This document shows, in pieces, positions 4,397 through 64,000 of a stretch of 64,000 bases of DNA (within the stretch, counting starts at the first letter, position 1; each line of letters opens with the position of its first letter). Both the position numbers and the translations under genes were made by a program. The notes below the pieces were generated by a model, which searched no databases, was not told the origin of the DNA, and was given only the letters and a program-made list of their open reading frames with translations. Source of the stretch: a virus. The stretch covers positions 83,680-147,679 of the IMG/VR virus record IMGVR_UViG_3300045988_100686; one strand, 5' to 3'.

Positions 4397-4440
4397 TGGT
4401 ATAAGTATTATGTAGAAGAATATAATTACGTATTCTTCTA
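4397..4440 (+). promoter_or_regulatory. sigma70-like extended -10 element (TGGTATAAG) followed by a 10-bp perfect hairpin (tagaagaata/tattcttcta)
   Basis: The motif family TGGTATAAGTAWTATGTAGA recurs at 56607 and 61523. It lies 55-75 nt upstream of ATG 4471, in the divergent region next to the RNAP-C gene. Confidence 0.45.
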
Positions 4441-4470: not shown

Positions 4471-4830
4471 ATGATTCCTTTAAGTCAAATTTATAAGAGG
4501 GAGAAGATTATTCTTACAATAAAGAATAGTAAAGATCTTATTAAGGAAGTATCCATTAATGGAGTAAACTTACTTAGTAAGACTTTATCACTTATTGTTA
4601 ATCCTGATTTAAACTGTGACCTCTTCCTGTTGAGAACCACAAAGTCAGGAGGAATAGTCTTCGAGCAATCAACAAAAGGGAATATTAGAATTACGATCTC
4701 CTCTAATATTTCCCTTGAATCAACCACAGATAGACCTACAACAAATTTCATAAGGGTATCTCAACGAGAGAAAAAGAATAGGCAGTGGACAATCTGTGAG
4801 CGATTCTATACCTTGGAGATCAATAGTTAA
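4471..4830 (+). CDS. hypothetical protein (119 aa)
   Basis: ORF track. GGGGGGAG lies 9 nt upstream of the ATG. Confidence 0.4.
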   Translation: MIPLSQIYKREKIILTIKNSKDLIKEVSINGVNLLSKTLSLIVNPDLNCDLFLLRTTKSGGIVFEQSTKGNIRITISSNISLESTTDRPTTNFIRVSQREKKNRQWTICERFYTLEINS

Positions 4831-12325: not shown

Positions 12326-14145
12326 ATGAGTTTACTATAGTGAGTGAGCTGAATGATGAGTTTAGTCTACGGGTATTTATGGAGTCGGGACAAAAGGTTG
12401 CTCAAGTTAATAATGTCTCTCATGATTTCTTAAGAGAGGCAATGCCTACTAGCAGGCTTGGAATAAGAACTCCAGGACTTGCTCCCTGGCCATCTAAATT
12501 TAAGGAAAATCCAGTTCCTGATGGATACTCTATTGCACTAAGTCATAAGTATACATTTGGGTCGATGTGTCTTAAGATGCTCTTGAACAAGCAAGCCAGA
12601 CACAGATATTTTGCGTTATTACTCGCGTTGTTTGGTAATAATGAAAATACCAGGGAACTTCTCACTGTAATGTTGTTAAGAACGAAGTTTACTGATGAAT
12701 TACGATATTTATGTGAGCAGCTTGACATTTCTCGTATGTCTGTTAGAACCTGGGATAGTGTGGCTATAGACAACAAGCCTGGCAGTGTAAAGTTTAATGA
12801 TGTTAGAAATTCTCCATGTAGTTGGTCGAGTGCACTTAGAAATGGATGTCTTGCTGACGGATATGTACCTCATCCGAACATATGGTTCAGAGATGTGAAA
12901 AATAAAAGTTTGTTTACTAAGATATCCGCTTGTGAGATGTTCCCTAATCTTGCTCCAAAGATCCTGGCAAGCATCCCTAAGTACCCTAAAGGAGGCAAGG
13001 TAGATAGAATTGTAGATATAAGGACTCAGATTCTGTTCAATATGCTGAGAAATGCATATGGACTCAAGTATGAGGATATCATTGTTGATAAGCAGCTAGA
13101 TCTTAATACATATGAAGTTCTATCTTCTCTCTGTGCTATTCTTACTGCTGCTGCAGGATTAGGCGGCAGGGTTTCTATTACTGATATCAGAGGAGTTGAT
13201 CCAGACTTAGATGTAAAATTAAGGTTTAGTCTCTGGTATCGTAATGTAAGATCAAGGATACTGACACTTCAAGGGAATTATGGTGTGGCAGGTGATGCCT
13301 GGCTTATGGACAAACTGCTTACTTCATTAGCTGTTGTAATGAATGCGGGGGATAAACAGGAAAGTGAATTGCTAACGTCGTGTGTACGAGCTGCAGTTGA
13401 TGAAAATGATCTCCAGGAAACCCTTGAGGGATGGGTGTCTAAGAGGAATATCAATATGTATCTTGGTGATACGAATACTTTAAACGCGGTGAATGTTCCC
13501 GCATCTACCTTGAGGAGCATTGAAGATGGGATAGATGACATTGTACAATCACTGTCTGACAAGGATAACATTGTTAAATGCCTAAAAGAACTGGTGCAGC
13601 TTCAGGAGTCTTCTATTAGTGGGAAGGCATTTGATCCTGTCACTACTACTAACTATACAAATATACAGTATAACAACAATGGACTTGTAACTGCGAGCCT
13701 GATTCCAATGATTACAAACAGATTCCAACTACTGGACTACATTTATAGAATGAGTACGTATAGAGAAAACGAGTTTATCTATGATACTATGGGAATCGTA
13801 AACAGATGCTCTAGGACTATAAGTTCCCATGTAAGTTCTTATGAATATAGTATAGGTATTTTGAAGAAATGGGAAGAGTTGCGGGATATTGCACTTGATC
13901 AGGTCTCACACAACGGTTCCGGGTATTTTTCAACTGAAATGTTGTATTGGAGTGCACTGGCTAGAGTTCTGGTAACCGACTGGCAACACTTCTGCAGAAT
14001 CAATGCAGGGAAATCCAGAGATGAGCTGTTTGAGATGTCAGTACTTACGGATAATCCATTCGCTGATATTGAGAACAGTGTCTGCCAAGAAATTGATGAG
14101 TATAAATCTGGATATGCAAGATGGCGTGAAAACAGGTTTAAATGA
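12313..14145 (+). CDS. hypothetical protein (610 aa), last gene of the operon
   Basis: ORF track. The ATGGCTAAAATAAATG overlap suggests coupling. A terminator follows. Confidence 0.6.
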   Translation: MAKINEFTIVSELNDEFSLRVFMESGQKVAQVNNVSHDFLREAMPTSRLGIRTPGLAPWPSKFKENPVPDGYSIALSHKYTFGSMCLKMLLNKQARHRYFALLLALFGNNENTRELLTVMLLRTKFTDELRYLCEQLDISRMSVRTWDSVAIDNKPGSVKFNDVRNSPCSWSSALRNGCLADGYVPHPNIWFRDVKNKSLFTKISACEMFPNLAPKILASIPKYPKGGKVDRIVDIRTQILFNMLRNAYGLKYEDIIVDKQLDLNTYEVLSSLCAILTAAAGLGGRVSITDIRGVDPDLDVKLRFSLWYRNVRSRILTLQGNYGVAGDAWLMDKLLTSLAVVMNAGDKQESELLTSCVRAAVDENDLQETLEGWVSKRNINMYLGDTNTLNAVNVPASTLRSIEDGIDDIVQSLSDKDNIVKCLKELVQLQESSISGKAFDPVTTTNYTNIQYNNNGLVTASLIPMITNRFQLLDYIYRMSTYRENEFIYDTMGIVNRCSRTISSHVSSYEYSIGILKKWEELRDIALDQVSHNGSGYFSTEMLYWSALARVLVTDWQHFCRINAGKSRDELFEMSVLTDNPFADIENSVCQEIDEYKSGYARWRENRFK

Positions 14146-14155
14146 TTTGTACTTA

Positions 14156-14188
14156 GACGAGAGTGAAATACCTCTCGTCGTTTTTTTT
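14156..14188 (+). terminator. rho-independent terminator
   Basis: The arms gacgagag and ctctcgtc flank a 9-nt loop, followed by T8. It lies 11 nt after the stop at 14145. Confidence 0.75.
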
Positions 14189-14189
14189 A

Positions 14190-15335
14190 GTTATCTAGAA
14201 TTTAAAGGTTGGACAATGTTGAACATGCTTCTCTCAGAGCCTACAGTGTACCTAGATTTGATTTTTATGTAGGGGTGTATGTAGTTATATACCCTGTTGT
14301 AAAAAGTCTCTCAAAGTTAATCCTAGGAGCTCTGAGATATATGTGTGCATTTTAAGCAGAATATGGAGGCTGTTTGAGCACTGGATAACAAGGTCATAAA
14401 GTACCTAAAAACCAGTGTAACCTCTGCAGCCCTTACATAGCAAGGGTTTCAAGCTCTGGTTACACTTGTCTACTTATCAGACAATTTAAAGTGTAACCAC
14501 AAAAATCTCGATAGACTGGGGCCTCAGATACCTCAAAATATACTGGTTACACTTTCTACACTAAAAAATATATATATATTATATACGATATACGATACGC
14601 GCACCCGCGCCTTAGGGGATTATTTATATAATAAATATATAAAGATACACACATAATTATATATATATTATATGTCTATCCAAAAAGGTGTAGAAAGTGT
14701 AACCAGGGCCTTTTTGTAGTCATACGCCCCCAGTTCATCGAGGTTCACGCGGTTACACCTTTTCAAAAAATAGGTGTAGAAAGGTGTAGATAAGTGTAGA
14801 GAGTTGTCAGACAATTTTAAAAGGCACCATAAATCCAGGTAAACGTCGTTAGTCCCAGTACTGTCCTTGTAAAACTATGATTTTCGTAGTACTCAACATA
14901 CGAGTGTCCATTAGTTCAAACTTTTGACACACTCTGATTTTTCTGAAAATTATTACCTATCTTGCTACTATGTTTATAAAATATAAAATAGTATGCAACA
15001 TATAAATTAACTTTTAACTTTAATAAACACATCCAAGCAGACTACGTTACACAAAGTTGTGACACTTAAGTGACATTGTAATATATCTTTCAATTCTAAC
15101 AAATCAGATAATTAAGATTTTTCATAGTTTATAATAAAATTCAGACAGCTATCCATGTCAGTCTTTGTCTTTCATAGCTAAACATAACTAACCATAGCTA
15201 ACAAGCATACATAGCTCTCAGAGCATATAGAGTACCTACATTCATTTTTTTAAATCATCTCCTATACAATATACTAATAGCAAACAAAGTCTTCTCAAAA
15301 CTAATTCTAGAGCCTCTCAGACATATATGAACATA
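14190..15335. other. 1.1-kb non-coding AT-rich region with iteron-like repeats; candidate replication origin or regulatory hub
   Basis: No ORF of 60 aa or more. It is flanked by convergent terminators. Repeated GGTTACAC/GTGTAACC (6 copies), GTGTAGA(A/T)A (5 or more copies), CAGACAATTT (2 copies) and (TA)n tracts are present. Confidence 0.45.
14543..14706. repeat. 19-bp perfect inverted repeat (CTGGTTACACTTTCTACAC ... GTGTAGAAAGTGTAACCAG) flanking a 126-bp (TA)n-rich core
   Basis: Arm 14543-14561 is the exact reverse complement of arm 14688-14706. The core contains tatacgatatacgatacg and a short GC hairpin cgcgcacccgcgc. Confidence 0.7.
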
Positions 15336-15370
15336 AAAGAGCACCAGACGGCCACAGTCGTCCAGTGCTC
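15331..15370 (-). terminator. rho-independent terminator ending the long minus-strand operon
   Basis: Two 6-bp stems are separated by a 2-nt bulge (gagcac..gtgctc). On the minus strand a UUUUA run follows. It lies 8 nt after the stop of 15378..16043. Confidence 0.55.
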
Positions 15371-15377
15371 TCATTGT

Positions 15378-16043
15378 TCACCATTGTATCATCTCATACG
15401 CTACACGTCCCTCAAGATGATTGTCACCATCAACACCCACCTGGTACGTCATACGGTTGTTACGGTAGTGGACACCGTAGCTCTTGCCAACACCTTCGTT
15501 GTAACCGACGTAGACACCAAGACCCACGGTTTTCTTTATATTTTTAATTGAATATATAGTGGTTCCGGGTTTGACATTGCTCTCTTTGTCCACAATAACC
15601 TTATCTCCATTACGGCGTTCAAGCTCTTTATCAATGTTTTCCTTTGAGCTCTCTTCAGGAGTAAAGTATGCGCGGTCATATCTCTTATCTAGCTTAAGAG
15701 TACTGGAGTTCAGGCTCTGATGAGACTTTAGTTCTTTAGAAATCTGTTCCGCCTCTTCCAGCTTCTTGATCTCAGTGATCTCCTTGTAGACTTCGTTCTT
15801 TTTGTTTCCCATGGCCTTGTCCACAGTTTCCTGCGTAACTCCACCGTTAACCACCATTATTTTGCCTCTGCTTGTATACCAGTTCCACAATAGCAGGTAA
15901 AAAATAAGCAGCAGAGTGATAAACAGGATCAGCATTGATATGAAGCGGTGTTCACTACACCATTCATAGACTTCCTTTAGTTTCCCGTTTGCCATCTTCA
16001 GTAATGTCTTTATCTTTGTCAACATATTGTAAGTGCTCCTCAC
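15378..16043 (-). CDS. membrane-anchored protein (221 aa, N-terminal TM); lysis-cassette candidate
   Basis: ORF track. The hydrophobic stretch ISMLILFITLLLIFYLLLW is present. Confidence 0.5.
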   Translation of the reverse strand: MRSTYNMLTKIKTLLKMANGKLKEVYEWCSEHRFISMLILFITLLLIFYLLLWNWYTSRGKIMVVNGGVTQETVDKAMGNKKNEVYKEITEIKKLEEAEQISKELKSHQSLNSSTLKLDKRYDRAYFTPEESSKENIDKELERRNGDKVIVDKESNVKPGTTIYSIKNIKKTVGLGVYVGYNEGVGKSYGVHYRNNRMTYQVGVDGDNHLEGRVAYEMIQW

Positions 16044-38935: not shown

Positions 38936-39385
38936 GTTTTGCTCCTTTTCTTCGTCAGCAGTACCTGCCAGACGAGATTTAATTATAGTTTATACTTCAT
39001 GAGAATAGACTATCTCTTTACATTCCTGATAAAGCTTTTCCATTCCATCATTTACCTTTAGTCTGTTCTTTATTACTGCATCATGAATCTGGCGTATAGC
39101 AAACCAGTTGTGTTCAAAACCATGAGTAAGCAGCCACCACATAGCCAAATTAAGGCGCATCCAGGTGTGGTTGCTCTGTTAATTCAGCTTTTGGTTTAAG
39201 AATACTCGTATAGGCATTAATTATTGATGCTAACATAGTTTATAATCGCCTCTACTTTCACTAAATATTATACCTTACTGTATTAACCCGTGGTTCATCT
39301 TCTAATTTTTTATACCTAAGCCAAAAATATAGAGCCTAAGCAGTTTGAAATAAACCACCAGACTCTATATAATATCTATACCAGA

Positions 39386-52266: not shown

Positions 52267-52442
52267 GTAACTGGATAATCAAAGAACTAGAGAAAAAGGC
52301 TTGGGCTGAAGCTGTCTTTCCAGAGATTGACAAATTTTATGCCAAAATGCTAGAGCGTGGCACAAGAAGATTTGTCATGACGGGAGTGCAAGAAGGCGCA
52401 ACTTACGCAAGCAAACAAAACAAGAGAAAGGATGGTAAATAA
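52263..52442 (+). CDS. small basic protein (59 aa) translationally coupled between the 545-aa gene and the RNAP gene
   Basis: ATGA overlaps the upstream stop and TAATG overlaps the RNAP start. MSNWIIKELEKKAWAEAVF... It falls below the 60-aa track cutoff. Confidence 0.4.
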   Translation: MSNWIIKELEKKAWAEAVFPEIDKFYAKMLERGTRRFVMTGVQEGATYASKQNKRKDGK

Positions 52443-55400
52443 TGTATCTTAATACAGCACAAAAATGGCAAGCCATTCTTAAAAAAGTAGAAGAAGGCGT
52501 AAAATCCATCTTCCCAATAGAGGCCAAAACCGGCAAAATTGAATTAATAAAGGTAGAAATACCAAATAATACTAATGCATCTATCTCAGCACAAAAAGAT
52601 AGACTTCTTACTGGAACCACCTTAGGCACACCAGTATATGGAACATTCAGACTTGTAAAAAATGATGGAAAGACTGAGACTAATAGAGTTAAACTTATAG
52701 ACCTGCCGATCCTTACTGATCGTGGTACATTTATTGTACAAGGTAAGGATTACTCAGTATTTAACCAAGTCCGTCTGCGTCCAGGATGTTTTGTACGTAA
52801 GACTAACGATTCCGACGAAGTTTTTGCTCAGTTCAACTTAGCTAAAGGATTAGGATTTAAGCTATACATGGATAACAATGGTGTATTCTATGTACGTTTT
52901 GATAAATCAGCGTTATCAAAGTCCTCCAAGCGTATTCCTTTGTATTCTCTGCTTCATGCACTTGGCACATCTGATGGAGAAATTCAAGGTCGCTGGGGAG
53001 ACACTGTATTTAAAAACAACGTAGCTAAATCCAGCCCAGATGACGTTAAAGCCATAATAGCTCAGTGCGTATATCCAACCAAGCGTACAGGTAATGATAA
53101 CAAGGATCTTCAAGAATACTTTAAAGGAAACATTCTCAACGAAGAAACAACCAGAGTAACACTTGGTCATGCATACCAAACTGTTACACCACAGGCCATC
53201 CTAGATGCTACTGTTAAAATGGTTCGGGTATATAATAACAAAGCAGATGAGGATGACCTAGACTCACTATTATTTAAGGAAGTTTTGGGTGTTGAAGATC
53301 ACTTGATGCTTAGAATTGAAAAGAAGGCTAAGGAAGAAGGTCTCATTTATAAGGTGATGAATAGAATTGATGCTGGGTATCCGCTGAAATCTATTATTCT
53401 ACCAAATTTCTTAACTAAGCTTATTGAAGGATTCTTTACAAAATCATCACTCTCTGCTCCACAAACAGAGATTAACCCAATCGAAATCCTAGAAACTGGT
53501 CACAAGATTACTGCAATGGGTGAAGGCGGCATTGGAAGTGACCGCGCGATTCCTATGTCTGCACGCAACCTCCATCCTTCTCACTTTGGATACCTTGATC
53601 CAGTCCGTACTACAGAATCTGAACGTGTAGGTGTTGACTTACGTACTACACTGCCAACAGTAATAAAGAACCGCAATATCTACTCTGAATTCATTGATAG
53701 ATCAGGCAAAAAAGTCATGTTAAAACCAATGGATCTTGTAGACAAAGTAATAGCATTTCCAGGGCAGGAACAAAAGCAAACTGTACGTGTACTGTTAAAT
53801 GGTCATTTAAAAGAAATGTCAAGAAATAAAGTAGACTATTGGGTTCCAAAATCCTCTAACATGTTTACTGTAACTACCAATTTGGTACCATTTCTTCATA
53901 ATGACCAAGGTAACCGTGTAACAATGGCCGGACGTATGGTTACTCAGGCAGTTCCGCTTGTACATCGTGAGGCTCCTTTGGTACAAATTCGTGACCAATC
54001 TGGTGAGTATAACACCATACAGGAACGATATGGCAAGGAGTACTTTGTTCCTAAGTCCCCAGAAGACGGTACCGTAACTGAAGTTACTAAGGACTACATT
54101 AAGGTTAACAATACTAAAGTAGAAATTTACAATAATTTCCCGCTTAACTTAAAGACATTTTTGACAATGTACCCACTCGTCAAGGTTGGTGACAAGGTTA
54201 AAAAAGGTCAAGTACTAGCTGATTCCAACTTTACTAAGGGTGGAGAGTTGGCCCTTGGAACAAACCTTAACGTAGCATATATTCCGTATAAAGGATACAC
54301 CCACGAGGACTCTATTGTAATCAGTGAATCTACAGCTAAAAAATTGACCAGCCAGCATATGTACACCTGTGAGTTTGAAACAGATGTAGACACACTGGTT
54401 GATAAAGGTGTGTTTATTAAGTGGTTTCCTACAAAAATTACACCTGCAAACATTGCTAAACTAAGTGACGACGGTGTTATTAAAAAAGATAGTAAAGTAA
54501 TCCGCGGAGATGTACTTATTGCAGGTATGCGTTATAAAACACTGACTAGCTCTGACAATATGTTGCGTAGACTTCGTGGAAACTTGGTTAACCCATATAA
54601 AGACGCTTCTGAAAAATGGGAACATGATGCTGAAGGAACTGTTGTAGAAGTAGTCCGCAAAGGAAAACTAATCCGCGTAGTAGTTGTAACAGAAGACTCT
54701 GCTAAGCGTGGTGATAAAATTTCTGGCTTACACGGCAATAAAGGTACTATCGGCCTAATCCTTCCAGATGATGAGATGCCTGTTGATAAAAATGGCAAAC
54801 CTGTTGATGCAATGTTGAACCCTGCATCTGTTCCGTCTCGTGTAAATCCAGGACAAATGTATGAAGCCTTGGAAGGTAAACGTGCACTTGCAGAGGGACA
54901 CAAGGTAGTCATTGATAACTTTGATTCAGCAGATTCTAGCAAGAAAGTATTGAATCAGTTGAAGCAAGAAGGCATAGACGTTGAAGAGACACTATATGAC
55001 CCGAAAACTAAACGTCCTCTAGGAAAAGTGTTTACTGGTACTCCGTATTTCATTAAACTGCACAAACAAACAGAAGGCAACTTCTCTAGTCTATACAGAG
55101 GTGCATACGACGCAAATAACCAGCCTATTAAAGGTGGAGAGGAAGGTTCTAAAGGTGTTGGCCAACTTGATGTTTACGCTTTACTTGGACATAATGCGAG
55201 GAACAACCTGGCAGAAATGGCTACATATAAGTCAGATAAAAACGATGATTTCTGGAACAGCCTTGAAGCTGGCATTGCTCCTGCGCCAGCAAAAGAGCCT
55301 TTTGCGTTCAAGAAGTTCAAATCGTTAGTTACCGCAGCAGGTATTGGCATAAAGTCAGATGACAACGCCATGACATTAGCTCCTCTGAATGACAAAATGA

Positions 55401-56557
55401 TCATGGATATGTCAGCAGGTGCAATACGAAAAGGTGCAATACTAGAAAACCACATGGGTAAAGACAGACCTGAATCCGGCGGTATCTTTGACCCTGTGGT
55501 TACAGGTGGTTTGAAAGGACAACAGTGGTCACATGTAAACCTAGCTGCACCTATCGTCAATCCGCTGTTTGAAGGCGTAGTAAGCACGCTTCTGCACAGG
55601 GATATATCAGGTGAAAATGGCAAAAAAATCCAAAAAGAACTTGCAGCAATAAATGTACCTAAACGTATTGGTGAAGTTAGTGCAGCTCTTAAGGTAGCAA
55701 CAGGAAGTAATCGCAACAAGCTTCTAAAAGAACTCAAGTATCTGACAGCGCTAAGAAAAGCTAACATGAACCCTGCAGACTATGTATTAACTAAATTCCC
55801 GATCATACCTCCGCAATTCCGCCCGATTTACAATTCGCAAACTGGTGGTCTTCCGATGGTAGCAGATGTTAACTACCTTTATAAAGACCTATTGAATGTA
55901 AATGAGAAACTAGAGAATATGAAAGACTACCCAGATTCTGAAAAAGGGGCATTACTCAAGGATCTTCGTCAGTCTGCACAGGCCATAGTTGGACTTATGG
56001 CTCCTGTTAACAAGCAAAATGAAAAACGTGGCGTAACAGGCTTCCTTCCTCAACTAACAGGCTCCAATTATCAAGGCCAGGGAACCAGCAAAGAGTCGTT
56101 CTTCCATAGAAAAATTTTAAAACGTCAACAAACGCTGACCGGTCGTGGCACAATCGGACCTGACCCGACGCTTAATGTTGATAATATCAAGATTCCTTGG
56201 GAAATGGCATGGAAGATTTATCAACCATTTGTTATTGCAGAGTTCCGCAAACGTGGCATCAACATCTTGAAGGCTAGAGAAGAAATCAAAAATCGCACTC
56301 CTGTAGCGAAACAACTTCTTGAGATTCAGATGAGAAAACGTCCAGTATTATTAAACCGTGCTCCGACCCTGCACAAGTATAATATTATGGCGTTTACTCC
56401 ACTTGGAACAGAAGGTAAAACAATTTATGTACCGCCTCTGGTAATCAAAGGTTTCGCAGCGGACTTTGATGGTGACTCCGTTGCTGGAGATACTCAAGTA
56501 CTAGTGCAAGATTTGCATGGAAATATTACCCTTAAACAAATAAAAGATGTAGAATAA
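52442..56557 (+). CDS. fused RNA polymerase beta + beta-prime N-terminal half, ending in a 26-aa split-intein N-fragment
   Basis: Beta motifs: TDRGTFIVQGKDYSVFNQVRLRPGCF, ISGLHGNKGTIGLILPDDEMPVD..LNPASVPSRVNPGQ and GQLDVYALLGHNARNNLAEMATYKSD. Beta-prime motifs: FPIIPPQFRP, LLNRAPTLHKYNIMAF and ADFDGD. Then comes SVAGDTQVLVQDLHGNITLKQIKDVE (intein block A) and stop. Confidence 0.85.
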   Translation: MYLNTAQKWQAILKKVEEGVKSIFPIEAKTGKIELIKVEIPNNTNASISAQKDRLLTGTTLGTPVYGTFRLVKNDGKTETNRVKLIDLPILTDRGTFIVQGKDYSVFNQVRLRPGCFVRKTNDSDEVFAQFNLAKGLGFKLYMDNNGVFYVRFDKSALSKSSKRIPLYSLLHALGTSDGEIQGRWGDTVFKNNVAKSSPDDVKAIIAQCVYPTKRTGNDNKDLQEYFKGNILNEETTRVTLGHAYQTVTPQAILDATVKMVRVYNNKADEDDLDSLLFKEVLGVEDHLMLRIEKKAKEEGLIYKVMNRIDAGYPLKSIILPNFLTKLIEGFFTKSSLSAPQTEINPIEILETGHKITAMGEGGIGSDRAIPMSARNLHPSHFGYLDPVRTTESERVGVDLRTTLPTVIKNRNIYSEFIDRSGKKVMLKPMDLVDKVIAFPGQEQKQTVRVLLNGHLKEMSRNKVDYWVPKSSNMFTVTTNLVPFLHNDQGNRVTMAGRMVTQAVPLVHREAPLVQIRDQSGEYNTIQERYGKEYFVPKSPEDGTVTEVTKDYIKVNNTKVEIYNNFPLNLKTFLTMYPLVKVGDKVKKGQVLADSNFTKGGELALGTNLNVAYIPYKGYTHEDSIVISESTAKKLTSQHMYTCEFETDVDTLVDKGVFIKWFPTKITPANIAKLSDDGVIKKDSKVIRGDVLIAGMRYKTLTSSDNMLRRLRGNLVNPYKDASEKWEHDAEGTVVEVVRKGKLIRVVVVTEDSAKRGDKISGLHGNKGTIGLILPDDEMPVDKNGKPVDAMLNPASVPSRVNPGQMYEALEGKRALAEGHKVVIDNFDSADSSKKVLNQLKQEGIDVEETLYDPKTKRPLGKVFTGTPYFIKLHKQTEGNFSSLYRGAYDANNQPIKGGEEGSKGVGQLDVYALLGHNARNNLAEMATYKSDKNDDFWNSLEAGIAPAPAKEPFAFKKFKSLVTAAGIGIKSDDNAMTLAPLNDKMIMDMSAGAIRKGAILENHMGKDRPESGGIFDPVVTGGLKGQQWSHVNLAAPIVNPLFEGVVSTLLHRDISGENGKKIQKELAAINVPKRIGEVSAALKVATGSNRNKLLKELKYLTALRKANMNPADYVLTKFPIIPPQFRPIYNSQTGGLPMVADVNYLYKDLLNVNEKLENMKDYPDSEKGALLKDLRQSAQAIVGLMAPVNKQNEKRGVTGFLPQLTGSNYQGQGTSKESFFHRKILKRQQTLTGRGTIGPDPTLNVDNIKIPWEMAWKIYQPFVIAEFRKRGINILKAREEIKNRTPVAKQLLEIQMRKRPVLLNRAPTLHKYNIMAFTPLGTEGKTIYVPPLVIKGFAADFDGDSVAGDTQVLVQDLHGNITLKQIKDVE
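56477..56554 (+). other. split intein N-fragment (block A only; Ser1)
   Basis: SVAGDTQVLV fits block A C/S-[LV]-[AS]-x-D-T-x-V directly after NADFDGD. Confidence 0.65.
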
Positions 56558-56606: not shown

Positions 56607-56650
56607 TGGTATAAGTAATATGTAGTACAGACATTTACGTCTGTTTTTTA
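56607..56650 (+). promoter_or_regulatory. TGGTATAAGTAATATGTAG element followed by a hairpin (acagac/gtctgt) and T6
   Basis: Second copy of the conserved extended -10-like motif. The hairpin plus U-run also behaves as a tandem terminator. Confidence 0.45.
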
Positions 56651-56916: not shown

Positions 56917-57017
56917 AAAGTTGTGGGATAAGTATGGTGTAGAAAAGATTTAGTCCATTTCTACAAAAATTTAATTGTCTATCACACGACGTAAAACTGT
57001 GAGAAAGAGGTTTTATC
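56917..57017 (+). repeat. about 100-nt intergenic repeat, copy 1 (GTGGGATAAGTATGGTGTAGAA-hairpin-AATTGTCTATCACACGACGTAAAACTGTGAGAAAGAGG)
   Basis: About 90% identical to 58446..58546. Each copy ends at the RBS/ATG of a small membrane-protein gene. Confidence 0.7.
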
Positions 57018-57230
57018 ATGGAAATGAACGAAATGAACAATGTAGTGGGTTCTGTAGAGATGAGCACTCCTGTTGTAGCACAAGATACCTCTGTGTCTAA
57101 TACTGGCATCAATCTGAAAACTGTAGGCCTGGCGGGTCTGGCAGCTGTAGTCGCTGGTGCAGCTTTGTACTACGGTTACAAAAAGTACAAAGATCATAAA
57201 GCTACAGCAACAGCAGAAGAATCCAAATAA
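57018..57230 (+). CDS. small single-pass membrane protein (70 aa), Met/acidic N-terminus, TM, YGYKKYK tail
   Basis: Paralog of 58928..59137 (GLAGLAAVVAGAALYYGYKKYKDHK vs LIGFIVGAAAAYGYHKYKQRK). Confidence 0.5.
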   Translation: MEMNEMNNVVGSVEMSTPVVAQDTSVSNTGINLKTVGLAGLAAVVAGAALYYGYKKYKDHKATATAEESK

Positions 57231-57236
57231 TCTTTT

Positions 57237-57313
57237 GTCCTGAGCATGACGTTAAAAGGCTCAAAGTGATTCGTCTATCACACGACGTAAAATTGTGAGA
57301 AAGAAGGTTTACT
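57237..57313 (+). repeat. intergenic repeat family 2, copy 1 (GTCCTGAGCATGACGTTAAAAGGCTCAA ... TCTATCACACGACGTAAAATTGTGAGAAAGAAGG)
   Basis: The 28-nt core is identical at 57537..57564. The leader half is shared with family 1. Confidence 0.6.
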
Positions 57314-57526
57314 ATGAAAACTATTCAAACTGCCTTATTCAATATGCTAATGTGGTTGGCAACATGCAAAACCTATATGAGAATTATGTTTGTGGTTTCC
57401 TTGGTGTGGAACATCGTGATCCTGCCAGTACATATGATTTTCGCTGTTGCATCCCGTCATCCAAAAACATATTTTCAGAACCTCTGGTGGTCTGTAAAAA
57501 CCACCTGGGAGTGGTTCGTTCGCTAG
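57314..57526 (+). CDS. small membrane protein (70 aa)
   Basis: ORF track. The RBS is gagaaagaagg. The protein is hydrophobic. Confidence 0.45.
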   Translation: MKTIQTALFNMLMWLATCKTYMRIMFVVSLVWNIVILPVHMIFAVASRHPKTYFQNLWWSVKTTWEWFVR

Positions 57527-57617
57527 TATTCTCTCGTCCTGAGCATGACGTTAAAAGGCTCAATTATTTTTTTAGTGTCAAGCTCGTGACGAAAACTAGA
57601 GCGTAGGAGGTAATATT

Positions 57618-57740
57618 ATGTATTTAATTGGTTGTATTTTAAAAGGATTAGTAAGTATCGTCACAATGCTAACTATAATGGTTGGCTGTATTGGGATAAT
57701 CCTAGGCATATTACTGACCAAGATACTCCTTGGATGTTAA
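57618..57740 (+). CDS. 40-aa hydrophobic peptide
   Basis: AGGAGG lies 7 nt upstream. MYLIGCILKGLVSIVTMLTIMVGCIGIILGILLTKILLGC. Confidence 0.4.
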   Translation: MYLIGCILKGLVSIVTMLTIMVGCIGIILGILLTKILLGC

Positions 57741-57759
57741 TACACAGGAGGAATAACTC

Positions 57760-57879
57760 ATGTACTTAGTAGTAAGCTTAACAGGGTTAGCTACGTTGCT
57801 TTCCCTGCTTTCAGGATTTTTACAAGGTTTAATTGTTTTTGGCCTTGTGTTCATACTTGTTTATATAAATTTGGAATAA
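57760..57879 (+). CDS. 39-aa hydrophobic peptide
   Basis: AGGAGG lies 9 nt upstream. MYLVVSLTGLATLLSLLSGFLQGLIVFGLVFILVYINLE. Confidence 0.4.
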   Translation: MYLVVSLTGLATLLSLLSGFLQGLIVFGLVFILVYINLE

Positions 57880-57906
57880 GATTGAGAAGGGAGGTATATC
57901 GTAGTT

Positions 57907-58113
57907 ATGACTATTGGACCCACCTCTGCATATGCCTTTAGCAATAAAGGAAATATAATTAGACTAATTAGGACCAGCAGAAAATCCATGGATGAATTTC
58001 AACATCAATGGATGCTGGTCCTCTATAAGGATGGTGCCCCTATAAAATATAAGGGGTTTACAATGAAATCCTCTGCTCTGCGTGTTTTAGAGGAATGGAA
58101 GGAAGAATATTAA
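57907..58113 (+). CDS. small hypothetical protein (68 aa)
   Basis: ORF track. GAAGGGAGG lies upstream. Confidence 0.45.
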   Translation: MTIGPTSAYAFSNKGNIIRLIRTSRKSMDEFQHQWMLVLYKDGAPIKYKGFTMKSSALRVLEEWKEEY

Positions 58114-58155
58114 TGTCTAGCTCATGACATTAAATTGAGCAGAAAGGAAACAAAA

Positions 58156-58470
58156 ATGGCTGAAATAACAACAAAAGTAAACCTTACTGGACTCCCAATT
58201 GATATCCTTAAATTTTATCGCGGTACTACATTAATCTGCAGCATGTACACCATTAAAGATCCGAAGAAGCAAAAGGAATACTTTACTTACTCTGGAGATG
58301 GAGATGTTAATGCTTTTCCAGTAGTTTCTAGAAGAACATCTACTAAAATCACATCTGGCGAAGGTACACTGTTGTATGGTAAGTACCTTACGTCTGGTGA
58401 ATTTATCATGGAAAACGGGGATGTCTTTTCCAAAAAAATCCTGCAAACTTGTGGGATAAGTATGGTGTAG
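58156..58470 (+). CDS. hypothetical protein (about 104 aa; start chosen at MAEITTK)
   Basis: AAAGGAAACAAAA lies before ATG 58156. The track gives an alternative start at 58135. Confidence 0.45.
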   Translation: MAEITTKVNLTGLPIDILKFYRGTTLICSMYTIKDPKKQKEYFTYSGDGDVNAFPVVSRRTSTKITSGEGTLLYGKYLTSGEFIMENGDVFSKKILQTCGISMV

Positions 58471-58546
58471 AAGAAATTTAGTTGTTTCTCTACAAAAATT
58501 TAATTGTCTATCACACGACGTAAACTTGTGAGAAAGAGGTACTAAC
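58446..58546 (+). repeat. about 100-nt intergenic repeat, copy 2
   Basis: See 56917..57017. Confidence 0.7.
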
Positions 58547-58756
58547 ATGAAAAAGTTTAAACAAAGTGTTGAAAGAGCGCTCATTATTTTGTCTGTAGTA
58601 ATTATTGCTACATCTATCGTATTCGCAGCAGCAATACTCGCGTTGCTCGCTGTCGCAGCTGTCGTAGGTCTCACGTATAAGCTGTATGAAGAGGATAAAA
58701 AGGAAAAGGAGGCTGAAGAAAAAGAAAAGGAGAAGGAGGAGAGCGAAAATGAATAA
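58547..58756 (+). CDS. small single-pass membrane protein (69 aa) with EK-rich tail
   Basis: ORF track. The TM segment is ALIILSVVIIATSIVFAAAILALLAVAAVVGL. Confidence 0.5.
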   Translation: MKKFKQSVERALIILSVVIIATSIVFAAAILALLAVAAVVGLTYKLYEEDKKEKEAEEKEKEKEESENE

Positions 58757-58913
58757 ACATAAAGTACTCTTAGGTTCTGAGGTACTCTTCGAGGGAACTA
58801 AAGAACAATGCGAAGCCTTCGTTCGTTCCATGGAATGGGACTTCGATGGTGAGTACCAAGGTTTACCTGCTGCGGATGCTGCAGCTAGTGCAATTGTTGT
58901 AGAGAATAATTAA
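58749..58913 (+). CDS. small protein (54 aa)
   Basis: ATGAATAA overlaps the upstream stop. MNKHKVLLGSEVLFEGTKEQCEAF... Confidence 0.45.
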   Translation: MNKHKVLLGSEVLFEGTKEQCEAFVRSMEWDFDGEYQGLPAADAAASAIVVENN

Positions 58914-58927
58914 GGAGGAAAATTATA

Positions 58928-59137
58928 ATGGATAACATGGATATGAACACAATGGATACTAATATGGCAATGGATACCACTCCGGAAGTTGTTACCCCGG
59001 AAGTAATGCCGGAAACTACGAGCGGGTTTGGTGATGTTCTCAAAGGTTCTGCACCTGGATTGATTGGCTTTATTGTTGGTGCTGCCGCAGCTTATGGTTA
59101 TCATAAGTATAAACAAAGAAAAGAGGAGAAGAAATGA
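58928..59137 (+). CDS. small single-pass membrane protein (69 aa), paralog of 57018..57230
   Basis: AAGGAGG lies upstream. It has a Met/Asp-rich N-terminus, a TM segment and YGYHKYK. Confidence 0.5.
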   Translation: MDNMDMNTMDTNMAMDTTPEVVTPEVMPETTSGFGDVLKGSAPGLIGFIVGAAAAYGYHKYKQRKEEKK

Positions 59138-59268
59138 AGGAATCAGAGAACGCTATTGCGGCGCTTGATGCGCTGCTGCGCGGCCTGAAAGAGGCCGGAA
59201 CTGATGGCTGGTACTATGATGAGTATCAGCTCATCAAGGAATTCATTGAGTCCCATAGGGACTCTTGA
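59134..59268 (+). CDS. small protein (44 aa)
   Basis: ATGA overlap with the upstream stop. MKESENAIAALDALLRGLKEAGTDGWYYDEY... Confidence 0.4.
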   Translation: MKESENAIAALDALLRGLKEAGTDGWYYDEYQLIKEFIESHRDS

Positions 59269-59316
59269 ATACCTACATGTAACTAATCTCAGTAGACAAG
59301 TTAAGGAGGAAATATT

Positions 59317-59820
59317 ATGTTAATTCCAGTATTAAGATTAGTAGCAGGTGCAGTATTCGGATATATTGTTTCTAGCACATCCTGTGAAGAATCCCAAAAC
59401 GTAAAGGAAATGAGAGCGGAGGTGAAAGATCTCCGTACCCAAATCTCCAACATTAGCGAACAAGCTTCTGCAGGAGCAACTGCAGCATATGAGGAGGCAA
59501 ATGCTGCTATGGATGAAGTCCTGAAGCAACAAGAACAGCTTGCAAAAGACTGGGATGATGCTCAGAAAACATTTAGAAATAGCTGTGATGCTATGCAAAA
59601 ACGTCATGATGACTTCCAGAGATATGCTCAGGAAGTCCAGGAGCGCATGGAAGCTAGAAGTAAAAGAATTACTCAAATTAAACAAGACATGCAAGCACTT
59701 AACAAAGAGATTGACGAGAGTCTTCAAAGTTTAGAAAACATGATAGCTGAGGAAAAAGAGCCTTCTGAAGAGTCTTTAAAGGACTTAAAGGAGAAACTTG
59801 AATCCAATAACGCAAAATAA
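59317..59820 (+). CDS. N-terminally anchored coiled-coil protein (167 aa)
   Basis: AAGGAGG lies upstream. The TM segment LIPVLRLVAGAVFGYIV is followed by a long helical E/K/Q-rich region. Confidence 0.55.
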   Translation: MLIPVLRLVAGAVFGYIVSSTSCEESQNVKEMRAEVKDLRTQISNISEQASAGATAAYEEANAAMDEVLKQQEQLAKDWDDAQKTFRNSCDAMQKRHDDFQRYAQEVQERMEARSKRITQIKQDMQALNKEIDESLQSLENMIAEEKEPSEESLKDLKEKLESNNAK

Positions 59821-59826
59821 AAAATG

Positions 59827-59882
59827 GGGCTACCTTCGGGTAGCCCAATTCTATTCATTCTTTTTTTTTACATAGGTATAAT
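59827..59882 (+). promoter_or_regulatory. GGGCTACC-TTCG-GGTAGCCC hairpin with distal T9, followed by a GGTATAAT -10 upstream of terL
   Basis: Perfect 8-bp stem with UUCG loop. TATAAT at 59877-59882 lies 24 nt before ATG 59906. Confidence 0.4.
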
Positions 59883-59905
59883 GAGACTACTGGGGGAATA
59901 TATCT

Positions 59906-61522
59906 ATGTTAAAACTTTCTACAAAACCTTCTGATTTTGCACAGAAGTTAATATACCTTGATGGTAAACCATTTAGTCTTAAAGGACTCCCATATATGGT
60001 TGATATCATGGATACTGAAACAGAACGAATGCTTCTTATGACTGGACGCCAGGTTGCTAAGTCTACTACCGTTTCAGCTACTGCTACTACAGAGTTAGCT
60101 AGTCATCCTTTTTGGCGCGCATTGTATGTAGCTCCACGTAATGACCAGGTTTCACAATTTGTAAATGATAAACTATCACCAATGTTACATAATTCTCCAC
60201 TCATTAAGAGATGGTATTTGAATTCTGCATGTAAAGATCAAACAATGGCAAAAGAACTACTTAATGGTTCTATGATTTACATGCGTTCATGTTACCATAA
60301 CGCTGACGGAATCCGTGGTATATCTGCGAACTCTGTGTATATAGATGAAGTGCAAGATATCATCCTAGATAATATTCCTGTTATTGAAGAGTGCACAGCA
60401 CGCAAAAATCCTAAACGGATGACGTTCTGTGGTACTCCTAAGACATTTGATAATTGCATTCAACAACTCTGGGATCAAACAACTCAGCATTATTGGGCAA
60501 TGAAATGCGAGGGATGTGGTCTATGGAATGTCCCAATTCTTGTAGAAAATCTTGGTCCAGACGGGGTTATATGTAAGCACTGTGGAAAGCGCCTTAACGT
60601 TGCTGGAGGACAGTATGTAGCTAAATACCCTGGACGCCCATTTATTGGCTACCATATTTCTCAGGCAATGATTGCAGGAGTACCAGCAACCGGAATTCCG
60701 TGGTCACGTTTGTTAGAGAAACTGAACAACCCATTATATGGAGAATCTAAGTTTTACAACGAATGTCTAGGTTTTTCCTATGATAACGGTGCAAAGCTTT
60801 TAGTTGAATCAGATTTGCGAGCTTGTTCTGACGATGATATAGAGGAGTGGACTACCAATCGCAAGGCTGAATGGGGAATATATAACCTTGTAGCTTCTGT
60901 AGACTGGGGAGTTCTTGGTGGAAATACTCATACAGTGTTAACGATGGGAGGTATCGATAAGAACGGAAAACTTAGGGTTATCTTTTCAAAAAAGTATCCT
61001 GTTGACCAAGACCCATTGAGTCAGATTGAGGATATCGTTAAAATTGTTTACCCAGCTAATCCCGCAATCCTTGTATGTGATCGTGGTGGTGGATCATTAG
61101 CCAACTCTGTTCTACGCCGTCACTTCCCAAAGAAACCTTTATATGAGGTAGAGTACAAGGCTAAAGTCAATGATGGTATGCATTATAGTGCAGATTCCAA
61201 GTCATGGATTACTGATCGCACTCGTGCTATGGCAGGTGTTGTTCTAGATATAAAGGCACAAAAAATAATATTTCCTAATTATAATAAGATTATGAAAGAC
61301 CAGTTCGCACCGGATTTGCTAACTCTTTCATGTGAATACAACGAAAAAATACGTGCTTTTCAGATTATTAGAGATATAGGAACTCCTGATGACTTCGCAC
61401 ATACCTTAGTATATCTTAGATTAGGCGCAAAATTTTTTGCACCTTCTCCAAAACGACTTGTTCACAATTTGGAACAATTTGATCCACCAAGTAAGCCTCA
61501 AGAAAATACATTCGATGATTAA
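59906..61522 (+). CDS. terL: terminase large subunit (T4 gp17-type ATPase + nuclease)
   Basis: Walker A TGRQVAKSTT (compare T4 SRQLGKTT) and Walker B SVYIDEVQD are present. Length is 538 aa. Confidence 0.75.
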   Translation: MLKLSTKPSDFAQKLIYLDGKPFSLKGLPYMVDIMDTETERMLLMTGRQVAKSTTVSATATTELASHPFWRALYVAPRNDQVSQFVNDKLSPMLHNSPLIKRWYLNSACKDQTMAKELLNGSMIYMRSCYHNADGIRGISANSVYIDEVQDIILDNIPVIEECTARKNPKRMTFCGTPKTFDNCIQQLWDQTTQHYWAMKCEGCGLWNVPILVENLGPDGVICKHCGKRLNVAGGQYVAKYPGRPFIGYHISQAMIAGVPATGIPWSRLLEKLNNPLYGESKFYNECLGFSYDNGAKLLVESDLRACSDDDIEEWTTNRKAEWGIYNLVASVDWGVLGGNTHTVLTMGGIDKNGKLRVIFSKKYPVDQDPLSQIEDIVKIVYPANPAILVCDRGGGSLANSVLRRHFPKKPLYEVEYKAKVNDGMHYSADSKSWITDRTRAMAGVVLDIKAQKIIFPNYNKIMKDQFAPDLLTLSCEYNEKIRAFQIIRDIGTPDDFAHTLVYLRLGAKFFAPSPKRLVHNLEQFDPPSKPQENTFDD

Positions 61523-61572
61523 TGGTATAAGTAATATGTAGAGATATGAGATTTCTCATGTCTCTTTTTTTT
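61523..61572 (+). terminator. TGGTATAAGTAATATGTAGAGA element followed by a 12-bp hairpin and T8 (terminator after terL)
   Basis: Third copy of the conserved motif. The arms agagatatgaga and tctcatgtctct flank a ttc loop, followed by T8. Confidence 0.6.
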
Positions 61573-61593
61573 ATTATAGAAAGGAGTGATTAG

Positions 61594-62253
61594 ATGTATT
61601 TGTACGGCATCTACCCAACTGGGAATTCTGATGTAATACCAGTAGCATTAAGTTCTACCTTAGTGATTTCTCACATGTATGTATCAGATGAACCAATTCA
61701 AAAAATTGCAACACGTATGGAGTTCCGGATTCCATATCAGCAAGCAGTGGATATTCTAAAGGAGGTCAATGTTAGCATAGCTGAAACTATTGAAAATAAC
61801 CAGTCTGACTTTGTATACTTTGCGATTGCAATTAACCCAAAGTATGACCAAAGTAAACAGGTTATAGAACGTACATTAACCTTTAATGGACGGAGTATTC
61901 CTATAAAGAACGTTTCATTTGGAGCGATTATGGAGAGTCAGCAGGACTTTATCTATGATAGTGAAGTTGTATTGCTTCCTATCCGACCAAAATTAATCGT
62001 AGATGGACATGAAACTACACCTTGCAGCTTATGTGAATATTCAAACTTGAAACACGGTAAAAAATATTGTGTATACTATACAAGAGGATTTCAGTGTTTA
62101 TTTACGAGGAATAATGCCTTGCAAATTACATGTGAGGGTTTTGCTGAGGCATGTGTTCCTATTGCTCCAGAGCTACCTGATAATCTTCAGGATGATCCAC
62201 TTCAAACAGATTACGGAATCGATGTAGATGAAGAAACATGGGAGGTAGACTAA
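61594..62253 (+). CDS. hypothetical protein (219 aa), first gene of the RT operon
   Basis: AAAGGAG lies upstream. The 3' end overlaps the RT start by 16 nt. Confidence 0.55.
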   Translation: MYLYGIYPTGNSDVIPVALSSTLVISHMYVSDEPIQKIATRMEFRIPYQQAVDILKEVNVSIAETIENNQSDFVYFAIAINPKYDQSKQVIERTLTFNGRSIPIKNVSFGAIMESQQDFIYDSEVVLLPIRPKLIVDGHETTPCSLCEYSNLKHGKKYCVYYTRGFQCLFTRNNALQITCEGFAEACVPIAPELPDNLQDDPLQTDYGIDVDEETWEVD

Positions 62254-63857
62254 TGACAATCACATTCTATAATTTACCAAAGTATTTATCTGCTGTTGGT
62301 GCTAACGTTAATGATTTGTGCACCGTAACGAATGATCTTGAGTCATTTGAATTCAGTTCATCGAAGCCACAGAAAGTATGTCAAAACATTATCAATACGA
62401 CATACCCTTTCTGTGATATTTTTACATTATCTCAAGCACTTGATATTAGTCCAGGAGTATTAAGTAACCCTGATTTTATAGCTTCCGGTGTAGGATATAA
62501 AACATTTTATATTGACAAAGAAACTGGTAAGGTGTCTCGTTACCCTGTATTTGCAAAGTACAGACGCATTGATGCCCCTCCTCCGCTGTTAAAAGAGATC
62601 CAACGCCGTCTTGCATCTGCATTCACAGTTTTCCCTGCCCACCCAGCTAATTTTGCGTTTATACATAATAAATCAATAAAAGACGCGCTTGAGATGTTAA
62701 AGAACAGCCAAACAATTATACATGTGGACTTGAAAGATTTTTTCGATAGTCATAGCGAGGTGTATTTAAATAAAAAAATTGGTAAACTCATTTATGCTAA
62801 AGAGACTCTGGAAGAGTATCAATGGAAGTTTGTACGGGCTATCACTAGGTGGGTAACTCTTAAACACTCCCTTCCTCAAGGAGCTCCAACGTCACCTATT
62901 ATTTCTGTAGTTGCTAACTATGAAATGGACTCCAAGCTAGCAGAAGCTGCTGATACACAAGATTTATCCTATGTTCGATACGCGGATGATTTGTTCTTTG
63001 GCGGTAATATATCTGCTGACGCAGCGCTGGATTTCATTGAATCGTTACCAGAAATGGTCCAGCCTTTTAGAATAAACCATAGTAAGGTTGGGGTTATGAC
63101 AGACTCCGTACGGCCAATCCCTACGGGGGTTATTATCAAGATAGCCCCCAAAAGGATTCCTCCGAGTCAGTCTGCTAAAATTTTATCTGAATGCCGACAA
63201 ACATTAGGTGACCAAACTGCAGAGTTGTTAGTAAATGATTATGAGCTTACAATAAAGACAAAGGTTCTCCGTGATACATCGGTATCTGATGCTACAATGT
63301 TATTAACTCCATTCATAACATGGTTGACAACGAAATATCCATCTTTAAATGCACACTGTAAATTACGCATATACCACCTTGCTAAAACAAAGGCAGTTTT
63401 AGGAGCACATATATATAATGGAGAGATTAAGTTTTCTCGAAAACAATATAATAATATGCGCTTACAAGCCATGCTGATAGGGATGCAAACTGCATTTAAA
63501 TATGCATCTAAGATCCTATCACCAACATTAGATGGATTACGTTCTGTGTATGTTATGAACTCCGTACATGAAGTAGCTGACTTAATTGACGGGGTAACTA
63601 TGTACCCATTTACTTCAGACGTTAGCCACAAACGTAACTTATTGCAGAAACCAATGTCCTATAAACAGTACAGGGGTAAAGTGAATTGGATTAATCAGAT
63701 TCAACCCGAGAAGGCTGCAAAACTAAAACGTGTGGAAGTTAAATTCTTTAAGTCAACACTTTATAAAATTTGTGGATTTTTGGAGACCACTGAAGTGATC
63801 CAAGAAGCAGCTATTAACTCAATTATTGAACAGGCGGTTACACAGTATTATGAATAA
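62238..63857 (+). CDS. reverse transcriptase (539 aa; retron/Abi/DRT-like, non-DGR)
   Basis: RT motifs: KYRRIDAPPPLLKEIQRRL (motifs 1/2), IIHVDLKDFFDSHS (A), LPQGAPTSPIISVVAN (B') and YVRYADDLFFGG (C, YADD). A C-terminal extension of about 250 aa follows. Confidence 0.8.
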   Translation: MGGRLMTITFYNLPKYLSAVGANVNDLCTVTNDLESFEFSSSKPQKVCQNIINTTYPFCDIFTLSQALDISPGVLSNPDFIASGVGYKTFYIDKETGKVSRYPVFAKYRRIDAPPPLLKEIQRRLASAFTVFPAHPANFAFIHNKSIKDALEMLKNSQTIIHVDLKDFFDSHSEVYLNKKIGKLIYAKETLEEYQWKFVRAITRWVTLKHSLPQGAPTSPIISVVANYEMDSKLAEAADTQDLSYVRYADDLFFGGNISADAALDFIESLPEMVQPFRINHSKVGVMTDSVRPIPTGVIIKIAPKRIPPSQSAKILSECRQTLGDQTAELLVNDYELTIKTKVLRDTSVSDATMLLTPFITWLTTKYPSLNAHCKLRIYHLAKTKAVLGAHIYNGEIKFSRKQYNNMRLQAMLIGMQTAFKYASKILSPTLDGLRSVYVMNSVHEVADLIDGVTMYPFTSDVSHKRNLLQKPMSYKQYRGKVNWINQIQPEKAAKLKRVEVKFFKSTLYKICGFLETTEVIQEAAINSIIEQAVTQYYE

Positions 63858-64000
63858 GGAAATTATTATTGATAAACTATGGAGACTACGAGGGCTACTC
63901 AGCTATGGATATCTAGAATCCCCAACGTCAGCAATCCAACTCATTGATGGCATTCTGAAAGACATGTATACCGTGGAAGACATGGAAGACATGGAAGACA
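63850..64000 (+). CDS. hypothetical protein, 5' fragment (runs off the window), coupled to the RT stop
   Basis: ATGAATAAGG overlaps the RT TAA. MNKEIIIDKLWRLRGLLSYGYLESPTSAIQ...EDMEDMED. Confidence 0.4.
   Translation, partial: MNKEIIIDKLWRLRGLLSYGYLESPTSAIQLIDGILKDMYTVEDMEDMED

Follow-up and report, generated by a model that had tools for sequence, protein, structure and literature searches.

Retrons are known as bacterial defence elements, and as genome-editing tools, in which one reverse transcriptase (RT) works with one template. Here we describe a locus at the 3′ end of a 64,000-nucleotide stretch of viral DNA (positions 83,680 to 147,679 of IMG/VR record IMGVR_UViG_3300045988_100686; hereafter the window, numbered from its first nucleotide), in which an RT gene lies between open reading frames (ORFs) for two acidic proteins, ORF-A and ORF-C. 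We give slightly better than an even chance to the reading that the window holds the protein-coding half of a retron-derived, multi-template RT system, one that would yield several complementary DNAs (cDNAs) resembling the multicopy single-stranded DNA (msDNA) of retrons. In relatives of this phage the cassette is followed by a tandem array of structured non-coding RNA (ncRNA) units. To our knowledge, no described retron has its ncRNA in this position or in such an array.

The locus shares with bacterial retrons (Ec86/Eco1, Ec78/Eco7 and those of types II and III) an RT core, a VTG-like motif after the palm domain, a1/a2-like repeats, an msr-like 5′ part followed by an msd-like 3′ part, and accessory genes co-transcribed with the RT. 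It differs in having 3-5 templates downstream of the RT with a promoter motif of their own, whereas bacterial retrons have one template upstream in the same transcript. Closing stems of 19-33 bp, a C-terminal RT domain of ~230 amino acids, an NAxxH motif that is not kept and partner proteins unlike the catalogued effectors also set it apart, as does its distribution as a universal, syntenic module in a clade of large, apparently lytic phages. A gut phage fragment provides a contrast case (L032), with a canonical single ncRNA upstream of a 376-amino-acid retron RT.

RTs have been reported from other phages. Jumbo phages of Staphylococcus aureus encode a 501-amino-acid retron-like RT and contain a 1.2-kb non-coding region that was hypothesised to hold an ncRNA, with no array described (bioRxiv 10.1101/2020.12.14.422802), and RTs of the UG27 group occur in gut phages (PMC9226505).

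Results

A retron-clade RT with two acidic partners

The cassette and the elements directly ahead of it are arranged as follows.

59906-61522, plus strand: TerL (PF05876, phrog_675), followed by the 19-nt motif at 61523-61541
61523..61541, plus strand: promoter-like motif TGGTATAAGTAATATGTAG, directly ahead of the RT operon, with putative promoter function
61540..61573, plus strand: 11-bp hairpin AGAGATATGAG-ATTT-CTCATGTCTCT (61540-61565) and T-run, found in the sequence by a regular-expression scan
61594..62253, plus strand: ORF-A, 219 amino acids, acidic, with four cysteines (Cys4), from the ORF call
62253..63857, plus strand: RT, 534 amino acids; the longest ORF, from 62238, gives 539 amino acids
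63850..64000, plus strand: first 50 codons of ORF-C, the rest of which lies beyond the window end

An original prediction, made from the letters of this DNA, had described a 219-amino-acid gene, a 539-amino-acid RT at 62238..63857 and a downstream gene, and had quoted the catalytic motifs of the RT. ORFs of 219 and 539 amino acids are indeed present at 61594..62253 and 62238..63857, with a third leaving the window, and the translation contains all of the motifs, as YKTFYIDKETGK...RRIDAPPPLLKEIQRRL, HVDLKDFFDS, LPQGAPTSPIIS and RYADD. The 16-nt overlap that was given for ORF-A and the RT is a product of choosing the longest ORF. Translation of the RT probably starts at 62253, where it overlaps the ORF-A stop as TAATG, because the homologues are 534 amino acids long and begin with MTITF, and because this ATG has a GGAGG ribosome-binding site 7 nt ahead of it. 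The start of the third gene, which had been described as ATGA-coupled, is instead the ATG at 63850, giving an 8-nt overlap with the end of the RT gene (ATGAATAA).

Based upon profile scores, the RT falls within the retron clade and outside the group II, diversity-generating retroelement (DGR) and Abi/UG enzymes. It matches Pfam RVT_1 above the cut-off (E=5e-16), with a core spanning residues ~40-310, and it is catalytically intact: its motif residues do not vary among 11 family members that are 30-90% identical. Among the PADLOC matches listed, all 25 families are retron RT types (best III-A, 5.7e-40) and none is a UG/Abi model. The NCBIfam models rank retron_St85 (6e-36) and retron Ec67 (1e-24) ahead of group II (3e-11), Drt2 (1.2e-9) and Drt3a (6.8e-6), with Drt2 reaching 38 bits against a cut-off of 390 and the group II maturase model 43 bits against a cut-off of 300. 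When a profile of the RT family was compared with the PDB, the Kva2, Ec78, Ec67, Ec86, Ec83 and Eco8 retron RTs were matched at 1e-29 to 1e-13 and group II RTs at ~1e-7, and the 16 best matches were all retron RTs or retron-type RT chains. At residues ~293-297 there is a VTG-like P[IV][PV]TG motif, with P293 and G297 invariant. Thus the retron part of an earlier "retron/Abi-like" description is supported, and the Abi/DRT-like placement is not, given that Drt2 and Drt3a fall far below the retron models and that neither type appears among the PADLOC families listed.

The region from residue ~311 to ~539 forms a basic, family-specific C-terminal domain of ~230 amino acids (isoelectric point, pI, 9.4). 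A search of 1.84 billion cluster representatives gave just 14 matches to it, 11 of them proteins of 480-575 amino acids, which is the size of the RT family.

The partner proteins are distinctive as well. ORF-A (pI 4.5) keeps its place in all relatives, where identity ranges over 17-98%, and carries four invariant cysteines (C144, C147, C159 and C168) that probably form a zinc ribbon. ORF-C is very acidic (pI 4.1-4.6), contains EDMEDM-type repeats and is predicted to be helical; its full length is 198-216 amino acids in close relatives and 340-453 amino acids in distant ones. Neither protein has a significant match in Pfam, PADLOC, PHROG, NCBIfam or, by profile search, the PDB sequences, which bears out the proposal of a three-gene RT cassette with new partners: the cassette is conserved and both partners are without known homologues. 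AlphaFold2 models were too poor for a fold search (predicted local distance difference test scores of 32 for ORF-A and 41 for ORF-C).

A tandem array of structured RNA units follows the cassette

Arrays could be inspected in 11 of the 12 lineages found, the twelfth (L031) being a 2.3-kb contig that stops within the RT. All 11 lineages with sequence past ORF-C carry an array of 3-5 units. The stretch begins with a promoter-like motif and a 5′ hairpin, continues with the tandem units, each 113-240 nt long, and closes with a T-run. The last unit doubles as a terminator. Each unit is predicted to fold strongly (-43 to -95 kcal/mol) and is closed by a stem of 19-33 bp. Within it are a conserved hairpin with the tip G-A(G/A/U)UU-C, whose stem differs between units, often a second hairpin with a UAC or UGC triloop, and, before the 3′ arm, a GC-rich segment (55-75% GC versus ~39% for the genome). 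The conserved part therefore lies 5′ and the variable part 3′, which is the a1, msr, msd, a2 order of retrons. Compensatory changes are found in 25 of 55 predicted base pairs among unit-1 orthologues from three lineages, and the conserved hairpin is essentially confined to the arrays. Moreover, the array remains beside the RT cassette where the flanking genes are different (L029 and L009).

The msr/msd-like RNA that had been envisaged in the flanks of the RT is thus found in relatives, as a tandem array downstream of the operon; the 64-kb window holds no array unit and no single RNA upstream of the RT. However, L020 is 95.5% identical to window positions 57001-64000 and has a four-unit array whose start is equivalent to ~480 nt past the window end. 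Because this close relative has four units, the genome from which the window derives almost certainly has an array as well, ~480-1200 nt beyond position 64000. There we would expect the end of ORF-C ~470 nt on, the sequence TGGTATAAGTA(A/T)TATGTAG and four units.

The array and the cassette are each preceded by a copy of one promoter-like motif. The 19-nt motif TGGTATAAGTAWTATGTAG has six matches in the window (4397-4415, 39365-39383 on the minus strand, 56607-56625, 56924-56942, 58452-58470 and 61523-61541), compared with 0.11 expected from shuffled sequences. All six directly precede a hairpin, and the copies at 56607 and 61523 also precede a T-run. The same motif opens the arrays in L001, L006, L003, L009, L026, L029 and L030. 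The motif probably serves the phage's own polymerase as a promoter and is coupled to either a terminator or a 5′ hairpin. The TATG that it contains is also present in late promoters of phiKZ-type phages.

The spacer between TerL and ORF-A is 72 nt long in the window and holds a single hairpin only. The RT operon had been described as lying right after the terminase terminator, and a hairpin with a T-run does follow TerL at 61540-61573, although this hairpin overlaps the promoter-like motif at 61523-61541. The structure may terminate TerL, form a hairpin in a 5′ leader, or do both. Its tip, GAG-AUUU-CUC, resembles the conserved array hairpin (HP1), variants of which have AUUU loops in L026, L029 and L030, and in L003, L012 and L014 the tips of the equivalent hairpins read GAG-AGUY/AGUG-CUC. 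A link between this tip and the RT is speculative.

Other RNA elements were noticed in relatives. The TerL/ORF-A spacer is ~350 nt long in the most divergent lineages (L017 7620-7950, L015 3013-3374) and contains a GC-rich structure flanked by inverted repeats and without the conserved hairpin; the operon may thus have an additional ncRNA ahead of it there. L003 carries a drum RNA (RF02958, 59.6 bits) at 12806-12913 on the minus strand directly after its array and a type II hammerhead ribozyme at 4714-4785 on the plus strand upstream of TerL, and a tRNA-like match is located in L001 at 3796-3882. No drum RNA, hammerhead or tRNA-like element was found in the window.

The centres of the array units are hypervariable

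Among genomes that are 88-95% identical, the scaffolds of the units are ~97-100% conserved, and a centre of 35-60 nt in units 1-3 is rewritten, with insertions and deletions. The msd loop tolerates change likewise in retron engineering. For three near-identical pairs of genomes, the rate of difference per site is 3-12 times higher in the GC-rich centres than in the 5-7 kb of DNA that flank the arrays.

L020 and L021: 9/340 differences in GC-rich centres, 15/6901 in flanking DNA, p=7e-7
L017 and L018: 22/306 in GC-rich centres, 177/6701 in flanking DNA, p=5e-5
L006 and L007: 4/341 in GC-rich centres, 13/5390 in flanking DNA, p=0.016

In the first of these pairs the array scaffold shows no differences (0/355), and the four-fold degenerate sites of six neighbouring genes show one (1/934).

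We considered possible sources and uses of the variable segments. Comparison of 28 segments with 50,697 phage records by blastn returned only noise (E=4), and the idea that they are copies of other phages was set aside. A role as restriction-site decoys was likewise rejected, as the excess of palindromic 6-mers in the GC-rich centres (49 observed, 36.6 expected) is too weak; GATC is mildly depleted in the window (0.69). Two short motifs, CCGGATCC/ATCCGG and GGTCCGCC(A/G)GG, are nonetheless met repeatedly in centres that belong to different units and different lineages (L001 12358, L014 7405, L012 7528, L015 7049, L017 12009; L020 ~9355, L026 ~13170).

A universal and fast-evolving module of a gut phage clade

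The cassette and a non-coding stretch of 530-1300 nt are syntenic in all 12 lineages found, in which TerL is 62-98% identical. Gene order is constant, with TerL followed by ORF-A (218-274 amino acids), the RT (404-567 amino acids), ORF-C (168-453 amino acids), the non-coding stretch and usually a convergent baseplate block. All TerL relatives recovered, down to 62% identity, have the RT nearby. They include IMG/VR contigs and a contig of a fecal metagenome-assembled genome binned as Acetatifactor, and the samples are from gut or feces; this binning hints weakly at a host among the Clostridia. The metagenomic contigs that carry the cassette are 61-161 kb long. Neither blastn nor tblastn found a close relative among GenBank phages, and the exact RT of the window is not on record.

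The carriers form a clade of ~150-kb gut myoviruses with their own RNA polymerases. In the window, two proteins of 900 and 1371 amino acids, encoded at 1611-4313 (minus strand) and 52442-56557 (plus strand), resemble the beta and beta′ subunits of multisubunit RNA polymerases (Rpb2_6, Rpb1_2; jumbo-phage PHROGs). Because of these two matches we conclude that the phage carries RNA polymerase of its own, despite a genome of only ~150 kb.

The cassette evolves far faster than TerL. Where TerL is 94% identical, the RTs are only 47-54% identical and ORF-A and ORF-C 40-42%. Between L020 and L021, the RT gene (L020 6660-8264) has three amino-acid changes and one change at 223 four-fold degenerate sites, which hints at positive selection on the RT itself.

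A similar array in MarsHill-like phages

The S. aureus jumbo phages provide a second case. In MarsHill (MW248466; L035 18849-20089), the region upstream of the RT gene gp206 is a five-unit tandem array, each unit having a closing repeat of 12-14 nt, an invariant hairpin CATTATATG-AATA-CGTATAATG and a long variable hairpin. When MarsHill is compared with Madawaska, PALS_2 and S6, the differences are again concentrated in the variable hairpins. Three small "hypothetical protein" coding sequences annotated within the Madawaska array (L036 520-1107) are probably spurious. The product of gp206 belongs to the retron clade (RT_II-A, 1e-39) and is 27% identical to the RT of the window.

Both groups are large myoviruses, lytic in the one case and apparently lytic in the gut clade, that encode multisubunit RNA polymerases, and both combine a retron-clade RT of ~500 amino acids that bears an extra domain with a tandem array. 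In the MarsHill-like phages, however, the extra domain is N-terminal rather than C-terminal, the array is upstream of the RT and the conserved hairpin has a different sequence. No homologue of ORF-A or ORF-C was recognised in them. The RT locus of Staphylococcus phage "Kay" (L033), which we also considered for comparison, is without an array and is not comparable.

Another non-coding region of the window

A 1.2-kb stretch at 14145-15378 has no ORF of at least 100 amino acids. Elements of the forms GTGTAACC/GGTTACAC and GGTGTAGA(A/T)A are repeated within it, together with a core rich in AT and an inverted repeat of 19 nt (14543-14706). By appearance the stretch is an origin or iteron region, or else one end of the genome.

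Discussion

If the cassette and the array work together as a retron-derived system, the sequences suggest how. Two transcription units would be used, the first composed of the promoter with ORF-A, the RT and ORF-C, and the second of the same motif with the array and its terminator. Cleavage at the closing stems of 19-33 bp, perhaps by RNase III, would divide the array transcript into units. The RT would then recognise the conserved hairpin of each unit (loop A-G/A/U-U-U, closed by G-C), prime near the a1/a2-like stem and copy the GC-rich 3′ segment, and several different msDNA-like single-stranded cDNAs would thus accumulate in each infected cell from one RT. The acidic partners, ORF-A with its four cysteines and ORF-C, may act with these RT-cDNA complexes. 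The copying of units, the priming site, RNase III processing and the roles of the partners are all steps that we infer.

Several observations weigh against a retron-derived, multi-template system. The RT scores under all NCBIfam family cut-offs, reaching 124 bits where 235 are required for a specific retron family, and the position of the NAxxH motif, which like VTG was reportedly defined for retron RTs by Mestre et al. in 2020, reads KDALEM or VDAAKT and is not conserved. A retron would be expected to have a single ncRNA that is upstream of the RT and co-transcribed with it; here the ncRNA is downstream, has a promoter-like motif of its own and is present in multiple copies. Rfam contains no family that matches the array units. 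At the end of a1, where a retron has its priming guanosine, a G (as GA[A/U]) directly follows in most lineages and is absent from L009. ORF-A and ORF-C have no recognisable effector fold and correspond to no recognised retron effector type. The array of this exact genome lies outside the window and is deduced from relatives, and the link from the RT to putative cDNA products comes from sequence. Finally, since both the RT and the array are universal in the clade, their co-occurrence there is not independent evidence, and only MarsHill and the rearranged L029 add independence. Judged by its retron-best profile matches, its sub-cut-off scores, the lack of NAxxH and its rare C-terminal domain, the RT family is a small, distinct offshoot of the retron clade.

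The fast evolution of the proteins together with the strongly variable template centres points to an interface of host-phage or phage-phage conflict. The module may be a retron-type system of exclusion or abortive infection, in which a complex of RT and msDNA holds ORF-A, ORF-C or both as toxins that a co-infecting competitor phage releases by disturbing the msDNA, with the templates serving as several sensors. The retron clade of the RT fits this idea, and the combination of RT, ncRNA and accessory proteins matches the tripartite defence retrons of bacteria; the fast evolution of the RT, ORF-A and ORF-C and the hypervariable template centres are also in keeping with it. We nevertheless regard it as unlikely. 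All clade members found carry the system, and always at the same place, which is core-like and not the pattern of patchy cargo, and a comparison of ORF-A and ORF-C with 5027 PADLOC models gave zero matches and no toxin-like family. Killing of the host would also be of little obvious benefit to an apparently lytic phage (no integrase was noticed; the lifestyle itself was not tested). Universal presence argues against sporadic defence cargo and fits a core function at least as well. For the retron-derived, multi-template system that we favour, we lean tentatively, at clearly less than even confidence, toward a role in counter-defence, for example through decoy or antitoxin-mimic cDNAs, over abortive-infection-type exclusion.

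Alternatively, the array may be unrelated to the RT and encode small RNAs, RNase III sites or terminators, with the RT using another template or carrying out protein-primed synthesis of the Abi/UG/DRT type. RTs of the latter kinds (AbiK, DRT2, DRT9/10) are tied to phage-host conflict as well, some of them have structured ncRNA templates and some are encoded by gut phages. Any link between RT and array is indirect, and their co-occurrence within the clade is uninformative; the array also has its own promoter-like motif, its last unit is at the same time a terminator, and the RT bears a large, family-specific C-terminal domain. Yet the units have a retron-like layout, the array tracks the RT cassette through rearrangement, and the distant, retron-type RT of MarsHill also adjoins a tandem array. 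The affinity of the RT is with retrons, the Drt2 and Drt3a scores being far weaker, and units flanked by a1 and a2 differ from the DRT2, DRT9 and DRT10 types of ncRNA. An array without connection to the RT is, in our estimate, somewhat less probable still than an exclusion system.

A DGR, or another self-diversifying retroelement that writes cDNA back into tail fibres or into its own templates, would also combine a phage RT with variable tail-fibre genes and a non-coding template RNA. Several genes of the phage are tail-fibre-like, the unit centres change faster than neutral sites, and error-prone feedback onto the template could give this pattern. However, the RT had already been judged not to be of the DGR type and this holds, as its B′ motif and all of its strong matches, which are to retrons, place it in another clade. 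No Avd-like family was matched and no pair of template and variable repeats was recognised: copies of the variable segments are absent from the 64-kb window, tail-fibre genes included, and from ~20 kb of relatives' flanks, and a blastn-short search with the array gaps gave only the promoter motif. Nor are the substitutions in the centres adenine-specific, as those of a DGR would be. This explanation is therefore highly improbable. Still further from plausible is the remnant of a group II intron or other mobile retroelement, for which a weak RT/maturase match (2.8e-11) could be cited, as this match is 25 orders of magnitude worse than those to retron models, an Rfam search of the window and of three relatives (L001, L003 and L009) yielded no intron ribozyme at E<=1, and the cassette is fixed in position, syntenic and interrupts no gene.

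A broader and more doubtful extension of the multi-template reading is that lytic phages with their own RNA polymerases, namely this gut clade and, independently, the MarsHill-like phages, run a retron RT as a multiplex cDNA factory. Tandem templates would give rise to fast-evolving single-stranded DNAs directed against host immunity or rivals, and the centres might change through diversifying selection or error-prone write-back. We hold this proposal with less confidence than the counter-defence role. If it is true, the locus would represent a multi-template retron of natural origin, and for the first time a system of retron type would be seen to serve a virulent phage instead of opposing it.

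A single retron-type RT with 3-5 tandem templates would be new, and here it would be a conserved module of a whole clade of large gut phages, with a similar array beside an unrelated retron-type RT in cultivable phages of Staphylococcus. The idea is directly testable, because MarsHill, PALS_2 and S6 are amenable to laboratory culture, and the variation of the centres among near-identical genomes would offer a handle on the interaction partners of the msDNA. Such a system could reveal a redeployment of retron RTs by viruses, and it could provide a natural blueprint for the multiplexed production of single-stranded DNA in cells.

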